A stretch of 63,522 nucleotides of DNA from a virus (lineage: Duplodnaviria; Caudoviricetes): positions 1-63,522 of IMG/VR virus record IMGVR_UViG_3300032234_000384; one strand, 5' to 3'. The first letter of the stretch is position 1. Each line of letters starts with the position of its first letter. The notes beneath the pieces were generated by a model, which worked only from the letters and a program-made list of their open reading frames with translations, had not been told where the DNA came from and made no database searches. Made by a program: the position numbers and the translations under genes. Positions 2,316-33,220 of this stretch are shown here, piece after piece.

Positions 2316-2851
2316 TACTGATTTCCTTTTTCTTTAGGTATAATTTGACCTAATTTTTTTACTTTTCTAACATCCATATTTAGAGTGTCACAAGCCGTTT
2401 TTAAACTCTCATAAGTTTTTCCGAAAATTGTAATTTTTTTAGAAGAACCTTTTGGATGATTTATTTTTGCATTATGTATACTACCCTGTCTTTTAGACCA
2501 ATGGTTATCACCAGACATTTTCTTAACTATTTCTGGATCATGCATTGGATTTTGCTTGAAAATATTATGTGTTTTTCCTGGTCTTTTAGACCAATGGTTA
2601 TCACCAGACATTTTTTCTAATACATCAGGCCTGTACATTGGATTATTTTCTTTTAACATCGACAATCTGGCTTCTTGCACAGAAATTTGACCAGAAAGTG
2701 TTTTCCAAGCAATTTTATCTTGCCAATGTCCATATTTTTCCCAAAGTTTCTTATGTTCTTCAGCATGTTCTTCAACAGTCAAAGAAATAAGATTGGAAGG
2801 ATCATCGGATCCTCCCATGTGTTTTGGAATAATATGGTGTTTGTGAATCAT
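2315..2851 (-). CDS. HNH homing endonuclease
   Basis: HKHHIIPKHMGGSDDPSNL..LT..EH..EH motif; C-terminal repeats of NUMOD type. Confidence 0.8.
   Translation of the reverse strand: MIHKHHIIPKHMGGSDDPSNLISLTVEEHAEEHKKLWEKYGHWQDKIAWKTLSGQISVQEARLSMLKENNPMYRPDVLEKMSGDNHWSKRPGKTHNIFKQNPMHDPEIVKKMSGDNHWSKRQGSIHNAKINHPKGSSKKITIFGKTYESLKTACDTLNMDVRKVKKLGQIIPKEKGNQ
2488..2614. repeat. 34-bp direct repeat inside the HNH gene (KMSGDNHWSKR x2)
   Basis: gtcttttagaccaatggttatcaccagacatttt at 2488-2521 and 2581-2614. Confidence 0.9.
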
Positions 2852-4157: not shown

Positions 4158-6070
4158 TTCTTTTTCTTCTTTAGAAGTGGAGGATTAACGGGTATCTTAT
4201 TCAGAGTATCCATTGGTTCTTTATTTGATGGTCCATGATAACCACCGGTGACTCCCATTTCAGTGCTAGGAGAATCAATAGATTCTTTTCTAAATTTATT
4301 AAATGATTTGCGTGTCACCTCTGCGGTACTACTATATTTATGCTCTGTCTGTTCTTTAAAGTTAACATTACTTAGACCAGCCATTGGATAAACTGTACCC
4401 TGACCACGTGTATCATACTCTGGTGATACACCGGAAGTTTTGATTACTTTTCCACTTTCGGCGTTTGAGGTTTTCTGCCTCTTGGCTTTTTGTTTGTCTG
4501 CGTCTTGTTGGAATCTGGTTTCTTTGGCTGGACTTTTGACTGTGATGGTTGGTCCACTACTTTCGTAGGTTCTGAAGGTGTAACCGGAGTTTGAGGTAAT
4601 TCCTCCGTCTTTAATGTCGTCTGGCTTGCCTTGTCTTCTGACAAGTTCACAGCTTGGACAGATGTTGTCGGCAATTCTGTAGCGTTTGTAAGAACCGCTT
4701 TTTTGGTCGGTCCGTCCAGAGGATGTGGCTTTGTCTCCACAGGAGCAACTGGGTCCTTCGGCGAGAACAGCTTTGCTAATTGTTTTAGTTTCTGAAACAT
4801 ATTTTTTGTATCCCTTTTCTAATATAGGTTTTGTTATAAAAGTTTCGAACATCTTATTGATGTTGTGTTTTTTGTGCCTTACCATCCAAGATTCGGCGAG
4901 TTCATTGTCAACAGGGGTATCAAAGAACCAGTTAGTCATTTCATAAATGATAGAAATGTCTTCCTCTTTCTCTGACGTTTCAAAATCGTTGGCTTCATTC
5001 AAGTCCACGGAGTTGTCAAACTCAAGATACTTTTTAAAATCTTGATTGAATTTTTCTGCAACTAACTGTGTGACTTCCCATCTTTGCTGACGGACAGATT
5101 CTGCCATCATTCTTTCGTGGCCTTCGTTACGCTTTCTTGATGATTCATTCGATGTATTCACAAAAATCATCATAGTTTCGTAACCAAGTTCTTCCAATTC
5201 TTCACGAATAGCAAGAATGTTATATTGTTCGTTTGTCGTACCAGTGATAATCAGGGGTTGGCGTTGACGAATAGCTTCACGGCGAGTGTCACGTGAGAAC
5301 TCATATAATTTGTGTTTATCATTCAGTATTGATACTGCCGTTGTTGAAGTGATTTCTACTGCATTCTGTTGTGCAATTGCTTCACGTATGATAATGTCTT
5401 TGCCGGAACCTGGTCCACCAGATATGAAAACGGCTTTGAACAGACCATGATTGGCACTTTCGTGTATACCCATACCTTGTCTAACATCACGGAACAATTC
5501 TTTTGCATGTTTTTCTGGAACGTGTGAAGGAATACCCTGTTTGAATGAATGAAAATCATTATTTTGAGCATGTTCACGCATCTTAGATGCAGACATACCT
5601 TCCGTACCTTCAGAATCGGGATCACGTTGGCCAGCAGACTTAACTTCAATCTTTTTGAAATTATATAATGAACCCTTTGCGGTGCCATTATATTGTTGTA
5701 ATTTCTTTTCGTATTCAGGTATTCTGTCCGAACCAGCAACCATAATTAAATGGTCATGACCCATGGCATGTAATCTTGCGGCATGTTGCAAGAATGTTGG
5801 ATGTTCCTTAGATGATGCTTCGATATTAGTATTGGGGAAGAAACGTTTTGCGTGTTTTACTTTTGAAGTAATATCAAGTGGATTCTTTTTAGCATCAACA
5901 GAGTGTGAAATAATGATGTGGTGAGGAGCGTTATGATCTTTGGCAATTTCTTTAACTTTATTGACCAACTTTTCGTGTCCCGTAGTTGGAGGATTCATGC
6001 GACCAAAGGCCATCACCACAGGTTTGTGGGTTTTAGAATTCGCTTCTAATTTTTCTAAAAATGATTTCAT
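4154..6070 (-). CDS. HIGH-type nucleotidyltransferase fused to a P-loop kinase-like domain
   Basis: FGRMNPPTTGH, VAGSDR and MSASKMR motifs; GGPGSGKD Walker A; MKSFLE start. Confidence 0.75.
   Translation of the reverse strand: MKSFLEKLEANSKTHKPVVMAFGRMNPPTTGHEKLVNKVKEIAKDHNAPHHIIISHSVDAKKNPLDITSKVKHAKRFFPNTNIEASSKEHPTFLQHAARLHAMGHDHLIMVAGSDRIPEYEKKLQQYNGTAKGSLYNFKKIEVKSAGQRDPDSEGTEGMSASKMREHAQNNDFHSFKQGIPSHVPEKHAKELFRDVRQGMGIHESANHGLFKAVFISGGPGSGKDIIIREAIAQQNAVEITSTTAVSILNDKHKLYEFSRDTRREAIRQRQPLIITGTTNEQYNILAIREELEELGYETMMIFVNTSNESSRKRNEGHERMMAESVRQQRWEVTQLVAEKFNQDFKKYLEFDNSVDLNEANDFETSEKEEDISIIYEMTNWFFDTPVDNELAESWMVRHKKHNINKMFETFITKPILEKGYKKYVSETKTISKAVLAEGPSCSCGDKATSSGRTDQKSGSYKRYRIADNICPSCELVRRQGKPDDIKDGGITSNSGYTFRTYESSGPTITVKSPAKETRFQQDADKQKAKRQKTSNAESGKVIKTSGVSPEYDTRGQGTVYPMAGLSNVNFKEQTEHKYSSTAEVTRKSFNKFRKESIDSPSTEMGVTGGYHGPSNKEPMDTLNKIPVNPPLLKKKKK
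4444..4800 (-). CDS. Possible overprinted small protein nested in 4154-6070
   Basis: 118-aa alternative frame with ATG and AAAGGGA RBS; amphipathic N-terminus, Pro/Thr-rich body, KKPRGRKP tail. Confidence 0.45.
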   Translation of the reverse strand: MFQKLKQLAKLFSPKDPVAPVETKPHPLDGPTKKAVLTNATELPTTSVQAVNLSEDKASQTTLKTEELPQTPVTPSEPTKVVDQPSQSKVQPKKPDSNKTQTNKKPRGRKPQTPKVEK

Positions 6071-25224: not shown

Positions 25225-25299
25225 TGGTGCGACCGGGGAATTCCGACATCCCGACCAAGGGATTATGAGTCCCCTGCTCTACCTCTGAGCTACGGTCGC
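25225..25299 (-). tRNA. tRNA-CAT (Ile2 or Met)
   Basis: Cloverleaf, loop CTCATAA, CCA encoded, atypical T-loop. Confidence 0.8.
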
Positions 25300-25302
25300 A
25301 TC

Positions 25303-25384
25303 TGGTGCGGGTAGCCGGACTCGAACCAGCACGCCGAAGCGGGAGATTTTAAGTCTCCTGTGTCTACCATTCCACCATACCCGC
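25303..25384 (-). tRNA. tRNA-Leu(TAA)
   Basis: Cloverleaf with variable arm, CTTAAAA, CCA. Confidence 0.92.
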
Positions 25385-25498: not shown

Positions 25499-26920
25499 TT
25501 ACAGCACTTTGTAACGGTCATCCATGATGGTCTTAAGCATCACAGATTCTGGTGTGAAGGTTTCAATGTCACCAGCAAGGAGTGGCTTAACCACGGCTGG
25601 AGAGAAACCAGACACCAGTGCAGTACCAGACTTGTCAAACTTCACAGGCGCATTGCCATATGAAGCGTTCAAGTTCCAGAATACAACCTTTGGAAGGGTG
25701 TAGCCTGCGGCTTCGTACTTACGTGCAATCATTTCGATTGCAGAGTCATCATGCTTGACACATTGGTCAAATTGCATGTCTGACAGAATCAACACCATTC
25801 CTGGCATATCTTCTTGTGCTACGTTACCTTTTACAGCAACGTCTAGGATTTTTGCAAAGGCCTTGTTCAGGTCAGTGTTCATATCCCAGTTGGACTTAAC
25901 CATTTGGTCAATCTTAGAATTGATACCACCCTTTAGGTGCATCAATTCTGGCTTACCAGAGAAGGTCAAGAATGTGTCCTTGAACGCACCCTTGTTCTTG
26001 TCAGCAAGGTACAATCCCAAAGAGACTGCAACTTCCAAACAGGTCAACTTACCAGTCTTGCCTGCGGTGCAGGTCATAGAACCAGATACGTCAACCAGAG
26101 GCAGAATGTTTGCATCACCAACATAGTTAGGCAATGCATTCCATTGTGCTTCAATCAAGTCCATTTCGGTCTTGTTGTATGTAACTCCATAGTTGGAGAT
26201 ACGACCCTTCAACACATCATATGGAAATACCGCAGATGCGTTAACCTTAACTTCAGGGTTATCACCCTTCACCAAAGATGCAACATATGCCGCATACTTT
26301 TCAGTGTTACGGTTGAAAGCCTTTTTGTAACGTGCAGACGCTACGGAAGGAACATGTGAGAAGTTAATGGAATCCCAGTCCTTTGCACACATGTTGGTTT
26401 CAACGACCTTGGTCATTTCGACCAAAGACTTACGGTAGAACTTTGGTGACATTCCGAAGAATGTACGGATTTCTGCCGCAATTGGACCTTGGCGAGGTGT
26501 CCACTTAGCCGCAAGTCCATTCTTTTCACGCAAAGCGTTACCGAGCATGGTGTATGCGGCTTCTTTCAGTGCCTTGGTCTTGAAGACAAACAAGTCATCC
26601 CAACGACCCAATTCTGGCACTTTAGCCAACAGAGCCTTAGCGGCTTCTGTATCAGTCTTTTCCAGATATACTAGGATATCACGGAAAAGTTGACGTTCAC
26701 CGGCACCACCACGTGCGTCACGTAGCCATGCGGCAACTCGTAGAGCCAATTCACGGTTCTCTGCCAAGGCAGCCGCAAATGCAGGCTTAATATCTTTTCC
26801 ACGGGATGCACCCGCATTGTAAAACAAATCTACCACCGCATTGGCAGTTGACTTGCGAGCCTTCATACCGTTTGTGGTACGGGCTTCTTGGTTCTTAACA
26901 GCTTCGACAAATGTTGACAT
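25499..26920 (-). CDS. DUF2828-type TROVE/Ro60-like protein with C-terminal vWA domain
   Basis: AAAAGGAG RBS; LRDARGGAGER, GRWDDL, AAKWTPR helical region; MIDAS DVSGSM and SDMQFD, VFWNL, SGFS. Confidence 0.8.
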   Translation of the reverse strand: MSTFVEAVKNQEARTTNGMKARKSTANAVVDLFYNAGASRGKDIKPAFAAALAENRELALRVAAWLRDARGGAGERQLFRDILVYLEKTDTEAAKALLAKVPELGRWDDLFVFKTKALKEAAYTMLGNALREKNGLAAKWTPRQGPIAAEIRTFFGMSPKFYRKSLVEMTKVVETNMCAKDWDSINFSHVPSVASARYKKAFNRNTEKYAAYVASLVKGDNPEVKVNASAVFPYDVLKGRISNYGVTYNKTEMDLIEAQWNALPNYVGDANILPLVDVSGSMTCTAGKTGKLTCLEVAVSLGLYLADKNKGAFKDTFLTFSGKPELMHLKGGINSKIDQMVKSNWDMNTDLNKAFAKILDVAVKGNVAQEDMPGMVLILSDMQFDQCVKHDDSAIEMIARKYEAAGYTLPKVVFWNLNASYGNAPVKFDKSGTALVSGFSPAVVKPLLAGDIETFTPESVMLKTIMDDRYKVL

Positions 26921-26939
26921 AATGAACTCCTTTTCAATC

Positions 26940-27060
26940 AACAGGTTAAACTTTTTGCATCCCCTATGCTACCATTACATTAGACACCCATTCGGGTGAG
27001 CCGGAATCGAACCGGTCTCGGGGTTTTCAGTTGCATTAAAATTGTTGCGGAACTTAACCT
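26940..27060 (-). ncRNA. Y-RNA-like RNA A1 containing a circularly permuted tRNA-Phe
   Basis: AGGTTAAG/TTTAACCT terminal stem, CCGCAA motif, then CTGAAAA, T-arm, closed acceptor stem, D-arm. Confidence 0.75.
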
Positions 27061-27068
27061 AAAAAAAC

Positions 27069-27168
27069 AACAGAATAGTTTTCTACTTTTTGATTTAAGT
27101 GAGAACTCGAAACTCACTATCTTATGATACGGGTATGAATCCGTGATAAGTGTTGCTGAAACTATTCT
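27069..27168 (-). ncRNA. Y-RNA-like RNA A2
   Basis: AGAATAG/CTATTCT stem, TTTCAGCAA; CAT-loop hairpin and T-arm-like hairpin. Confidence 0.7.
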
Positions 27169-27187
27169 AAAAATCTCCAAAAAAAAC

Positions 27188-27284
27188 AACAGAGTAGTTT
27201 GATTGCCACCTTGGCGATCACGCTAGTTTTGGTGCGTAACATAGGAATCGAACCTACAAATTTTGATTTTGCTGAACCTACTCT
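27188..27284 (-). ncRNA. Y-RNA-like RNA A3 with permuted tRNA domain
   Basis: AGAGTAG/CTACTCT stem, GTTCAGCAA; GTAGG-TTCGATT-CCTAT, GTTACGC-ACCA-loop-GCGTGAT, short D-arm. Confidence 0.75.
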
Positions 27285-27300
27285 AAAACTTTCAAAAAAT

Positions 27301-27522
27301 AACAGGATGGTCGGTTTGTATTTTAACTTGGTTCTTAAACCACAGAGTACCCTTACGGCAAATGCAACCCTCTGAAATCATATGGTTTACCATAATCTTT
27401 TCTGTCTTTCCAGAGTCCAATTTAGTTCAGGTTATTTCCCTAGCTTCGTAATTACACCTTACGGTGGTTCTCCTATAGAAGCACTTCAGCTTTAGTACGT
27501 TTAAACTTGCTGTATCCATCCT
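27301..27522 (-). ncRNA. Y-RNA-like RNA A4 (long)
   Basis: AGGATGG/CCATCCT stem, ATACAGCAA; ~200-nt multi-hairpin insert. Confidence 0.65.
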
Positions 27523-27550
27523 AAAAAACTTTAATAATCTCCATATAAAG

Positions 27551-27579
27551 ATTATATCACGTTAAGTGTAATTTGTCAA
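27551..27579 (-). promoter_or_regulatory. Consensus sigma70 promoter for the A4-A1 / DUF2828 operon
   Basis: TTGACA-17-TATAAT. Confidence 0.85.
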
Positions 27580-27611
27580 GTCTTTTTTAGCATTGTTGCC
27601 AAAAAACAACA

Positions 27612-27686
27612 TGGTGTCCTCAACAGGAATCGAACCTGTATCCAGAACTTAGGAGGTTCTTATTCTATCCGTTGAACTATAAGGAC
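27612..27686 (-). tRNA. tRNA-Arg(CCT)
   Basis: Cloverleaf, CTCCTAA, CCA. Confidence 0.9.
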
Positions 27687-28147: not shown

Positions 28148-28275
28148 TGGTGGAGATGGTGGGATTCGAACCGCACACAAGAACTTTTACAGAGTTATAG
28201 CTTAGGTTGTTGCAGAACTTATCCTTTACAGGATAATTTTTTTGCTTTGCTATGCTACCATTACATCACATCTCC
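28148..28275 (-). ncRNA. tRNA-Tyr-like / Y-motif hybrid RNA A5
   Basis: GGAGATG/CATCTCC-ACCA acceptor, D-arm, inserted TTATCCT-GTAA-AGGATAA-GTTCTGCAA, CTGTAAA loop, T-arm. Confidence 0.75.
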
Positions 28276-28280
28276 AAAAT

Positions 28281-28355
28281 TGGTGGGGTGCCGCAGATTC
28301 AAACTGCGTTCTCTCGGCTTAAGAGGCCGGACTTCATCATCAAAGTTTGCTCCCC
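28281..28355 (-). tRNA. tRNA-Lys(CTT), atypical
   Basis: CTCTTAA loop, CCA; D-loop lacks GG. Confidence 0.75.
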
Positions 28356-28453
28356 ATATAGAAACACACTAACGAACCTGGTTGTGGGATTCGAACCCAC
28401 GTTTTCCCGTAGCACCAGCGGCACTGCTACTTACCGATCAATGTATTTCTATA
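28356..28453 (-). ncRNA. Long-terminal-stem ncRNA (family B) with internal T-arm
   Basis: TATAGAAATACATT/AGTGTGTTTCTATA stem; GTGGG-TTCGAAT-CCCAC inside. Confidence 0.6.
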
Positions 28454-28581: not shown

Positions 28582-28783
28582 TTTGTAAGTAGTTCCACCA
28601 CGTTATTGGAACCATTCAGCCGATTATACAAGTCCGGACGGCAGTCGGTACGCCACTTGGAATACTCGTCAGAGGAAACCCAAACGTTACTAAGATGGGA
28701 TACGAGCCCATACCTCTTTTTACACTGAAAGGTCCTTCGAAGTAACCTAGACAATGTGACTTTCTCTTGCTGACACTTACAAA
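28582..28783 (-). ncRNA. Probable divergent long member of the CAGCAA RNA family
   Basis: TTTGTAAGT/ACTTACAAA terminal stem followed by GTCAGCAA. Confidence 0.5.
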
Positions 28784-30528: not shown

Positions 30529-30591
30529 AACAGAATAGTTTTTGCGTTTTCAATTACAAGTTGAATGCTTTATATTTGCTGAACCTATTCT
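30529..30591 (-). ncRNA. Y-RNA-like RNA A6 displaying a Thr(TGT) anticodon arm
   Basis: AGAATAG/CTATTCT, GTTCAGCAA; TTCAA-CTTGTAA-TTGAA. Confidence 0.72.
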
Positions 30592-30859: not shown

Positions 30860-30925
30860 AACAGGATGATTTTTGTCGCTAGACAACCAAAAAGTTTAGC
30901 TAATTTTATTTGCTGTACTCATCCT
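30860..30925 (-). ncRNA. Y-RNA-like RNA A7
   Basis: AGGATGA/TCATCCT, GTACAGCAA; hairpin with TTTTGGT loop. Confidence 0.68.
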
Positions 30926-31451: not shown

Positions 31452-31511
31452 AACAGAATCCGCTTTTAGTTTCATTTTCAGTGAAAGTTTTTTATTTGCT
31501 GAATGGATTCT
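31452..31511 (-). ncRNA. Y-RNA-like RNA A8 displaying a Phe(GAA) anticodon arm
   Basis: AGAATCC/GGATTCT, ATTCAGCAA; TTTCA-CTGAAAA-TGAAA. Confidence 0.72.
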
Positions 31512-32751: not shown

Positions 32752-33165
32752 TTATGTTCCACGATAATACTTTGCCCTAGGTCTTCCTTGTTTCTTGTTT
32801 GCACCTTTCCAGGTTGCAGTCAATGAGTGACAATTTGGACATAAAAGTTTTAGATTATCTTCTTTGTTGTTGGTGTAATCACCATCAACATGTTCTAATT
32901 CTAATGGTATTTTGTCAGTAAATATGTTTGTTTTAGACCAACCACATTCACAACATTTGTTTTCATACTTCTCAAAAAGATAACGGCGTATATGATATGA
33001 TGTTGCGGTTTTACCTCGCATTCCATCATGTTCGTCGTTTTTCCATTGTTTGATGAATTCTTTATATTGATAGTCATTTTGACATTTAACATCACAATAT
33101 TTTTTATTCTGTGATGGATAAGCATCAAATTCTTTATTGCAACATAAACACTTATAAGTTTCCAT
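32752..33165 (-). CDS. HNH endonuclease
   Basis: CxxC pairs, LELEHVDG...N...NL.LLCPNCHS. Confidence 0.85.
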   Translation of the reverse strand: METYKCLCCNKEFDAYPSQNKKYCDVKCQNDYQYKEFIKQWKNDEHDGMRGKTATSYHIRRYLFEKYENKCCECGWSKTNIFTDKIPLELEHVDGDYTNNKEDNLKLLCPNCHSLTATWKGANKKQGRPRAKYYRGT

Positions 33166-33220
33166 AAAAATCTCCTTCAATATTATTTATACCGATAGTG
33201 ATTTATACAGTCGCTCATTA

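Follow-up and report, generated by a model that had tools for sequence, protein, structure and literature searches.

Bacterial YrlA RNAs, known from Salmonella Typhimurium and Mycobacterium smegmatis, are the closest described counterparts of the two small RNAs reported here. They are encoded beside the gene for a Ro60-fold protein and on its strand, several Y RNAs to a locus, and consist of a stem formed by the 5' and 3' ends around an inner transfer RNA (tRNA) mimic in which a T-arm, an acceptor hairpin and a D-arm follow one another. To our knowledge, Y RNAs that mimic tRNA have been described solely next to Ro60 genes of the TROVE type. YrlA is bound by the Ro60 orthologue in vivo and carries modifications made by TruB and DusA. 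In the words of 10.1101/312249, most RNAs of this kind "resemble circularly permuted tRNAs", and according to Chen et al. 2014 (PMC4201824), whose survey began from TROVE-annotated proteins, the M. smegmatis RNA, with a 7-base-pair (bp) acceptor, is cut by RNase P and gains CCA. A phage example is Thermus phage phiLo (PMC12135203; PDB 9KOP and 9L5Y), in which two Y-like RNAs, Yrl1 and Yrl2, lie just upstream of the gene for a Ro60-fold protein; they were chosen by a CGAA motif and are described as stem-bulge-stem, and the available portion of that paper describes no tRNA-like module in them. Here, we analyzed a 63.5-kilobase (kb) piece of an uncultured virus record (IMGVR_UViG_3300032234_000384; hereafter the window), in which four RNAs, A1 to A4, are encoded upstream of a gene for a predicted Ro60-fold protein. 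The YrlA layout and setting outlined above recur at this locus, as does the phiLo arrangement of Y-like RNAs just upstream of a phage Ro60-fold gene. We consider it likely that A1 and A3 are YrlA-like Y RNAs, that is, tRNA mimics tethered to a Ro60-like ring. In design and setting, the kind is known; the variant is new, widespread in phages and tied to Ro60-like proteins of the DUF2828 type.

A1 (27060..26943, minus strand) is closed by a 10-bp end helix, the handle (27060-27051 with 26952-26943; a preliminary description of this DNA had quoted the shorter strings 27060-27054 and 26949-26943), which together with the motif GTTCCGCAA at 27053-27045 surrounds a permuted tRNA-like core (26961..27030, minus strand). 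The core runs from an A-rich CTGAAAA stretch (27030-27024), preceded by a short helix, through the 3' strand of the anticodon stem (CCCC, 27023-27020), a variable region in the form of a 4-nucleotide (nt) linker, a T-arm with the loop TTCGATT (27015-27001), an acceptor hairpin with a GAAT loop (27000-26983) and a D-arm with the loop AATGGTA (26980-26966) to the 5' strand of the anticodon stem (GGGG, 26964-26961), after which comes the closing handle strand. The anticodon-like loop is open: GGGG/CCCC pairing is followed by a TGCA/TGCA helix and then by the handle. A3 (27284..27191, minus strand) has a 7-bp handle and the motif GTTCAGCAA, which enclose a 5-bp T-arm (27257-27241), a 7-bp acceptor and a reduced D-arm (27215-27205) with a 4-bp stem and a 3-nt loop that keeps GG. 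Between the 3' strand (27240-27234) and the 5' strand (27223-27217) of this acceptor, the loop holds ACCA (27233-27230) and a six-base spacer, AAACTA (27229-27224); there is no anticodon stem. A check of the sequence found every string quoted for A1 and A3 in the preliminary description in its place on the minus strand.

To score these cores without choosing the cut by hand, every 60-95-nt subsequence of 26921-27611 was given to ARAGORN as a circle. The program called 116 of the 22,122 circles as tRNA, on the minus strand only, 100 of them in A1 and 16 in or overlapping A3, with none in A2 or A4; the same scan of 74 control tiles outside the tRNA block gave 0 calls for 1,637,028 circles. The 70-nt A1 core is called as a 69-nt tRNA-Phe(gaa) when circular and is not called when linear, and linear A1 and A3 gave neither an ARAGORN call nor an Rfam tRNA match even at E up to 10. 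In the ARAGORN cloverleaf of A1, the acceptor has five Watson-Crick pairs and a T.T mismatch, plus one T-G pair that the GAAT loop supplies, while the T stem has 4 bp and an A.C mismatch and the anticodon stem 4 bp. Neither RNA has the closed 7-nt anticodon loop on a 5-bp stem that marks a canonical tRNA, the 4-bp anticodon stem of A1 ending in an opened loop that runs into a further helix. Both have what marks the inner domain of YrlA, namely a T-arm, an acceptor hairpin and a D-arm in that order, with TTCGATT T-loops and GG in the D-loops. The circular calls, along with the stem covariation given below, bear out the earlier proposal that A1 and A3 hold a circularly permuted tRNA-like core in YrlA order.

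The same proposal had taken A1 for a whole tRNA-Phe with its anticodon loop retained, and that part did not hold up. Phe(gaa) accounts for 4 of the 100 A1 circle calls, the others being Cys, Ile, Leu, Ser and more, and the anticodon that ARAGORN names varies with the closure point of the circle. The heptamer CTGAAAA is found in 1 of 13 A1-class homologues, the one in the window, and TGAAAA in 6 of 13. When A1 was re-permuted and compared with the 29 phage tRNAs, tRNA-Phe came seventh (45 of 65 positions identical) and tRNA-Leu(taa) was nearest (54/66). We rejected tRNA-Leu(taa) as the donor of A1, its score of 22 against a median of 19 being ordinary between tRNAs of this phage. On these grounds, we keep A1 as a tRNA-like core opened in the anticodon loop and drop the name tRNA-Phe.

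A protein-guided scan of viral contigs yielded 80 related loci (designated by L and a number) with a partner protein 68-96% identical to that of the window. Upstream of the gene, these relatives carry up to four orthologous RNA classes, matching A4, A3, A2 and A1, and members of the A1 and A3 classes are retained in contigs with 81-96% identity in the partner protein. Among 10 distinct A3-class sequences, 97.8% of the cells are paired and there are five compensatory pairs (two in the T stem and three in the acceptor); the 13 distinct tRNA-like members of the A1 class give 93.9% and eight compensatory pairs, in the T, D and anticodon-like stems. In each class, the covariation score was reached by 0 of 500 shuffles, and sliding the structure by 1-3 columns lowered pairing to 27-51% for A3 and 19-51% for A1. 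The 7-bp acceptor of A3 is maintained through CGC/GCG, CCA/TGG and TCC/GGA swaps. Since the handle pairs never vary in the A1 and A3 class alignments, these are uninformative on the handle. Permuted-tRNA calls between the last tRNA and the gene were obtained in 21 of the 77 loci with enough upstream DNA, on the gene strand only; this circular use of ARAGORN is conservative, and some loci with an A1 homologue evident on inspection, L006 and L009 among them, received no call.

These alignments also bear on the idea that A1 to A4 are functionless debris, tRNA genes decayed after a rearrangement of the cluster. The RNAs do lie within a cluster of 30 tRNA genes and have other odd tRNA-like pieces nearby, as debris would. 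We nevertheless give the idea almost no credence, since compensatory changes that keep the T, D, acceptor and anticodon-like stems already contradict it, and the persistence of orthologous classes over that range of protein identity, the conserved ACC of the A3 loop and the recurrence of the design in phages of three host phyla argue the same way. The A3 acceptor loop does contain ACCA, as had been noted: of 10 distinct homologues, 9 have ACC and 6 the full ACCA, whereas the remainder of the loop ranges in length from 5 to 21 nt. Retention of ACC in a loop that otherwise varies points to function, which, by analogy, would most simply be RNase P recognition and protection of a CCA end.

The gene downstream of A1 (25499..26920, minus strand) encodes a protein of 473 amino acids with the Pfam domains DUF2828 and DUF7788 and belongs to phrog_850, which PHROGs labels "RNA-binding protein". 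Its ribosome-binding site, AAGGAG (26932-26927), lies 11 nt past the end of A1, and 22 nt separate that end from the start codon. Since the best 120 homologues listed were all at least 82% identical, a representative library was used instead for the fold alignment, which held 133 diverse sequences; the resulting AlphaFold2 model has a predicted local distance difference test score (pLDDT) of 93.1 and a predicted template modeling score (pTM) of 0.91. A Foldseek search of the PDB with this model placed Ro60 structures, aligned over the full length, in each of the first 12 ranks (lowest E 3e-9, highest TM 0.67), among them Ro60 of frog (with RNA) and human, Deinococcus Rsr and the protein of phage phiLo, whose aligned parts are only 17% identical to the window protein. 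The two features that mark Ro60, a HEAT-repeat ring and a vWA domain with a DxSxS metal site, are both present in the model, and D277, S279 and S281 of the metal site are invariant in the 133 sequences. The view that A1 and A3 adjoin a gene for a protein with a Ro60 fold thus stands for the predicted model. The gene family is present in 700 of 50,697 phage records; some mycobacteriophage records label the gene "Ro-like RNA binding protein", and one such protein is DUF2828/DUF7788 by Pfam.

The scaffold of A1 and A3 is shared by other RNAs of the window, all on the minus strand. A2 (27072..27168) has the handle and CAGCAA scaffold with a T-arm-like hairpin bearing a 9-nt loop and gave no tRNA-like call; A4 (27304..27522) has the same scaffold with a 219-nt structured insert, and its class is kept in relatives. 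Three minimal handle-CAGCAA RNAs lie between tRNA genes, at 30532..30591 (60 nt), 30863..30925 (63 nt) and 31455..31511 (57 nt). A strict pattern of handle, CMGCAA, closing strand and GTT has seven matches in the window, all on the minus strand, against an average of 0.34 and at most 3 in 50 dinucleotide shuffles. A1 and A3 would appear to belong to a group of small, Y-RNA-like RNAs, at least seven in number, that a T4-like phage encodes, each with a constant module (the end helix, C(A/C)GCAA just after its 5' strand and a GTT-rich tail) and a variable inner module. A further possible scaffold RNA, with a 6-nt handle GTAAGT...ACTTAC and GTCAGCAAG, was seen at 28590-28765 (minus strand) between tRNA-Val and tRNA-Phe; it has no GTT tail and was missed by the strict pattern. 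Among relatives, A4-class units of about 210-260 nt with the same handle were seen in L004, L005, L006, L015, L019, L064, L071 and L081, with a recurrent GGACCACCG-NAAG-GTGTA hairpin and no match to an Rfam family.

At the gene-proximal position in relatives, the constant ends are the handle, the CMGCAA motif, an A-rich 3' strand and the GTT tail, and the letters of the handle differ among lineages yet stay complementary. What lies between these ends changes. In many loci, the insert is a minimal hairpin of 49-62 nt; in others, it is an A1-type core; L028 and L060 have a different core with a 6-7-bp acceptor; L021, L022, L026, L033 and L053 hold a whole tRNA with an intact anticodon hairpin, permuted between the D-arm and the anticodon arm; and L055 holds another whole tRNA. 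For the L021 unit, 594 of 1,386 circles were called as tRNA, mostly Ile(tat). The suggestion of an independent derivation from tRNAs was upheld only for the inner modules: depending on the lineage, the scaffold surrounds either a minimal hairpin or a tRNA-like module of one of at least four kinds; the gene-proximal scaffold, on the other hand, is conserved. Two of the whole-tRNA units, L021:2361-2475 and L022:621-735, are almost the same, with four differing positions of which two fall in the anticodon (TAT versus TTG), a difference that may reflect selection on the anticodon or chance.

The linkage of gene and RNAs recurs across phage families. In a sample of ten named phages with the partner gene, handle-CAGCAA units lie beside the gene and on its strand in seven: Cronobacter phage S13, Campylobacter phage NCTC12673, Listeria phage LMSP-25, Enterococcus phage PEF1, Synechococcus phage BUCT-ZZ01, Escherichia coli phage GEP101 (Felixounavirus) and Mycobacterium phage OhShagHennessy. 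Raw counts were 31 on the gene strand versus 4 on the other. Permuted-tRNA calls were obtained in four of the ten (S13, PEF1, GEP101 and OhShagHennessy), and the OhShagHennessy unit has the A1 layout, including the A-rich strand, here before a 5-bp anticodon-like stem. A unit of the A3 type, with encoded ACCA after a 7-bp acceptor, was seen in S13; the GEP101 unit has no such feature. In Serratia phage BF (L095, 1319-2578) and Listeria phage LMSP-25 (L097, 5850-7061), RNA ligase genes were also seen no more than 1.5 kb from the gene for the Ro60-like protein, one annotated "RNA ligase" and one "tRNA-splicing ligase". They recall the rsr-rtcB linkage of bacteria.

The position of the units also allows another explanation, in which A1 to A4 are not free-standing RNAs and act in cis as leader structures of the Ro60-like mRNA, for example as autorepression sites. 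A sigma-70-type promoter (27551..27579, minus strand), with TTGACA, a 17-nt spacer, TG and TATAAT (12 of 12 positions), lies just upstream of A4, and it probably drives a single transcript that holds A4, A3, A2, A1 and the Ro60-like gene. A4 to A1 thus stand between a consensus promoter and the gene, with the last of them ending just before the ribosome-binding site and no terminator-like site between them and the gene, as leader structures would. We find this explanation highly improbable, since the three minimal scaffold units are found among tRNA genes at a distance of 3.6-4.6 kb, GEP101 and OhShagHennessy have their units on the downstream side of the gene, and the same GTT-rich tail on every unit suggests processing into separate RNAs.

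Under the YrlA-like reading that we favor, the constant module would be the docking site for the downstream-encoded Ro60-fold protein, and the inner module of A1 and A3 would fold as an L-shaped tRNA mimic in the form of a circularly permuted tRNA. As in bacterial YrlA, the mimic may present a tRNA elbow to a tRNA-binding partner, which would be either tethered to the Ro60-like ring or decoyed. The acceptor of A1, a short 5-bp hairpin with a tetraloop, probably stays closed for that reason, like that of Salmonella YrlA. Since A3 has a 7-bp acceptor, a conserved ACC(A) and a spacer, we predict that RNase P cuts its loop and that the 3' side is trimmed to a CCA end; the product would be a two-piece RNA like M. 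smegmatis YrlA, which A3 resembles as a 7-bp acceptor variant openable by RNase P. The two differ in that the A3 loop encodes ACC(A), whereas M. smegmatis YrlA gains CA after cleavage.

Several results weigh against this reading. A search with the Rfam YrlA model (RF02553), proposed earlier as a check, spoke against membership in that family, with no match at A1 or A3; the best score in the window, at a tRNA junction (25276-25331), is 17.5 bits versus a gathering cut-off of 69. GNCGAAN0-1G, the hallmark motif of YrlA, occurs in none of the 5' parts of A1 to A4, which carry GTTCCGCAA (A1), TTTCAGCAA (A2), GTTCAGCAA (A3) and ATACAGCAA (A4). The partner protein has no match at E up to 10 to the Pfam TROVE domain (PF05731), its only domains being DUF7788 and DUF2828, and no PDB chain matches it by sequence at E up to 10. 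Folding energies are no better than those of shuffles (z = -0.47 for A1, -1.32 for A2 and -1.74 for A3). Since many relatives hold only a hairpin at the A1 position, the tRNA-like module is dispensable for the role of the scaffold. Among the named phages, six of ten have no permuted-tRNA call within 1.5-3 kb and three of ten have no handle unit; nothing was found within 3 kb in Vibrio phage nt-1 and a Staphylococcus Twort-like phage, and Serratia phage BF has one match only, inside a coding region. Across 26800-27620, no Y-RNA family of Rfam matched at E up to 10, and weak Rfam matches to the tobacco mosaic virus pseudoknot, RAGATH-34 and a plastid untranslated region were taken as chance.

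The phage RNAs thus differ from YrlA in carrying CMGCAA, in having a DUF2828/DUF7788 partner rather than TROVE and in missing the Rfam model. Since the Rfam model, the GNCGAA motif and the TROVE partner all fail, we file them as YrlA-like in working and as a separate family. They differ further in that some units of relatives have full anticodon arms, whereas YrlA has no anticodon loop according to 10.1101/312249, and in that unpermuted tRNA-handle chimeras coexist with the permuted forms.

The chimera of the window, an unpermuted tRNA-Tyr(gta)-like gene of 126 nt (28150..28275, minus strand), was found through similarity within the window between the 3' half of A1 and 28266..28228. Its 7-bp acceptor terminates in ACCA and its D-arm is almost the same as that of A1; an anticodon arm with the loop CTGTAAA and a T-arm complete it. 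Between the D-arm and the anticodon arm is a 53-nt insertion that amounts to the scaffold inside out, in the order handle 3' strand, GTAA loop, handle 5' strand and GTTCTGCAA. Removal of the insertion was required for an ARAGORN call of tRNA-Tyr(gta) (11 of 5,467 deletions, versus 0 of 218,680 in controls); allowing introns gave no call on the element. We rejected a transfer-messenger RNA (tmRNA) identity, as the weak Rfam score (18.3 bits, with a cut-off of 47) stems from the tRNA-like ends. The gene is kept in L004, L013, L060 and L061, where the handle hairpin covaries, the loops are of GNRA type and the anticodon arm is invariant. A Tyr anticodon is absent from all 30 ordinary tRNAs of the window, which is part of an incomplete record. 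In Cronobacter phage S13 (L093), a handle hairpin and TTCAGCA were likewise seen inserted in two RefSeq tRNAs, a 121-nt tRNA-Ser (4896-5016) and a 113-nt tRNA-OTHER (5026-5138), next to a permuted unit (5154-5288) whose acceptor loop begins with ACCA.

Chimeras of this kind allow a broader reading, conceivable though doubtful in our view, in which the locus holds a graded series of tRNA/Y-RNA chimeras on one protein-binding handle and the Ro60-like ring takes up genuine phage tRNAs in addition to the mimics. The series would lead from handle-armed working tRNAs (such as 28275..28150) through whole tRNAs permuted at the point where the handle arm sits to the stripped mimics A1 and A3; the ring might serve as a shield and as a platform for the repair of phage tRNAs, or as a decoy for tRNA-attacking host enzymes, and the permuted units might have arisen at junctions of tandemly duplicated handle-bearing tRNA genes. 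If true, the locus family would be a living record of the evolution of Y RNAs from tRNAs.

The whole tRNAs in the scaffold also raise the possibility that the units are true permuted or split tRNA genes, in which RNase P opens the acceptor loop, the 3' side is trimmed and the pieces function as a tRNA that can be charged, with the handle either keeping them together or being excised before their ends are ligated. Such an origin of working tRNAs would fit the intact 7-nt anticodon loop on its own stem in units of the L021 type, L055 and PEF1, the 7-bp acceptor and ACCA of A3, the handle arm on the cluster's only Tyr-anticodon tRNA-like gene, whose anticodon arm is invariant in 5 loci, and the RNA ligase genes near the Ro60-like gene in phages BF and LMSP-25. 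It is improbable all the same, in our judgment, since A3 lacks an anticodon arm altogether, that of A1 is reduced to a 4-bp stem with an opened loop, the near-identical units of L021 and L022 differ in the anticodon, and the conserved part of the family is the handle rather than the tRNA part.

Permuted tRNA genes whose products mature through a circular intermediate are marked by a bulge-helix-bulge motif where the paired ends join and by a splicing endonuclease. Those of Cyanidioschyzon merolae and Thermofilum pendens, as described in 10.1101/312249, resemble the phage units in that the 3' half comes first, the acceptor starts out closed into a loop and the ends pair in an extended anticodon stem; their RNAs mature to ordinary tRNAs through a splicing endonuclease and a circular intermediate. 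The Discussion of that paper states that no splicing-type endonuclease has been reported in bacteria, a further point against split tRNA genes here. Unlike the RNAs of C. merolae and T. pendens, A3 has no anticodon arm, and the end-helix motif of the phage units is common to RNAs that are not tRNA-like. We know of no such splicing enzyme for these phage RNAs.

A recent derivation from tRNAs, which the preliminary description had also suggested, is not supported, given the conservation of the classes with covariation, the A1-like architecture in a mycobacteriophage and the lack of a donor tRNA: among 435 distinct phage tRNAs from these loci, none qualified as donor, the modules scoring 16-23 versus a median of 26 for the unrelated-tRNA baseline. 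An origin from tRNAs is consistent with the A3 loop. Sim and Wolin 2018, as summarized in 10.1101/312249, proposed that YrlA arose from dimeric tRNAs, and the A3 loop, with its acceptor 3' strand, encoded CCA, short spacer and acceptor 5' strand, fits that model. CCA is encoded by all 29 tRNA genes that ARAGORN finds in the window, so the ACCA and spacer of A3 are what would remain at the joint between two successive tRNA genes. In that summary, the dimeric-tRNA model names no extant intermediates, whereas this locus family offers handle-bearing unpermuted tRNAs, and a tandem duplication of such a gene would yield permuted units directly. The encoded CCA and spacer of A3 and the handle-bearing unpermuted tRNAs thus make a tRNA origin of Y RNAs directly testable.

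A related case may be gp130 of E. coli phage Bas63, described in 10.1101/2024.10.10.617714 as having a Ro60-like structure, adjoining tRNA genes and countering Ppl defence; the authors guess that some Bas63 "tRNA genes" are Y RNAs. Literature searches gave no description of the RNAs reported here and nothing that links DUF2828 with a Y RNA, the DUF2828 papers being, by title, on plant or tardigrade genomics, and found nothing on phage Ro-like proteins with Y RNA or, by title, on phage-encoded permuted tRNA mimics; the 22 phages in Supplemental Table S2 of Chen et al. 2014 might include some of the phage groups named here. The design appears beside proteins filed as domains of unknown function, including those of Felixounavirus, Listeria, Enterococcus and Campylobacter phages and mycobacteriophages, where the RNAs have no annotation or, in the case of Cronobacter phage S13, are entered as tRNAs of excessive length. 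Specific Y-RNA candidates follow from the handle-CAGCAA motif.

The window has an estimated completeness of 38% and comes from a T4-like myovirus according to PHROG matches, which include UvsX, UvsY, DNA polymerase, clamp, clamp loader and a RegA-like repressor, as well as the late sigma factor, major head, portal, sheath and tube proteins. The genes surrounding A1 to A4 are all on the minus strand. The 29 ARAGORN tRNA genes span 25.3-36.6 kb, and a third tRNA with a CAT anticodon (25228-25299, minus strand) was found by Rfam (52.8 bits) with no ARAGORN call. The region of A1 to A4 is the sole large gap in this cluster, between tRNA-Arg(cct) and the open reading frame of 473 amino acids (26920..25499). 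A megablast search of the locus against a phage collection gave no near-identical DNA. At 28281-28355 (minus strand) lies a tRNA-sized element of 75 nt with an ACCA end, 6 of 7 acceptor pairs, an anticodon-like loop CTCTTAA (CTT) and the T-arm loop TTTGAAT; it has no recognizable D-arm and no ARAGORN or Rfam call. Just after tRNA-Phe (28380-28450, minus strand) is a lone T-arm, GTGGG-TTCGAAT-CCCAC, with flanking hairpins, for which Rfam gives only a 16-bit match to a tmRNA end. HNH/homing endonuclease genes are present at 32755-33180 (minus strand), within the tRNA cluster, and at 2318-2851 (minus strand).

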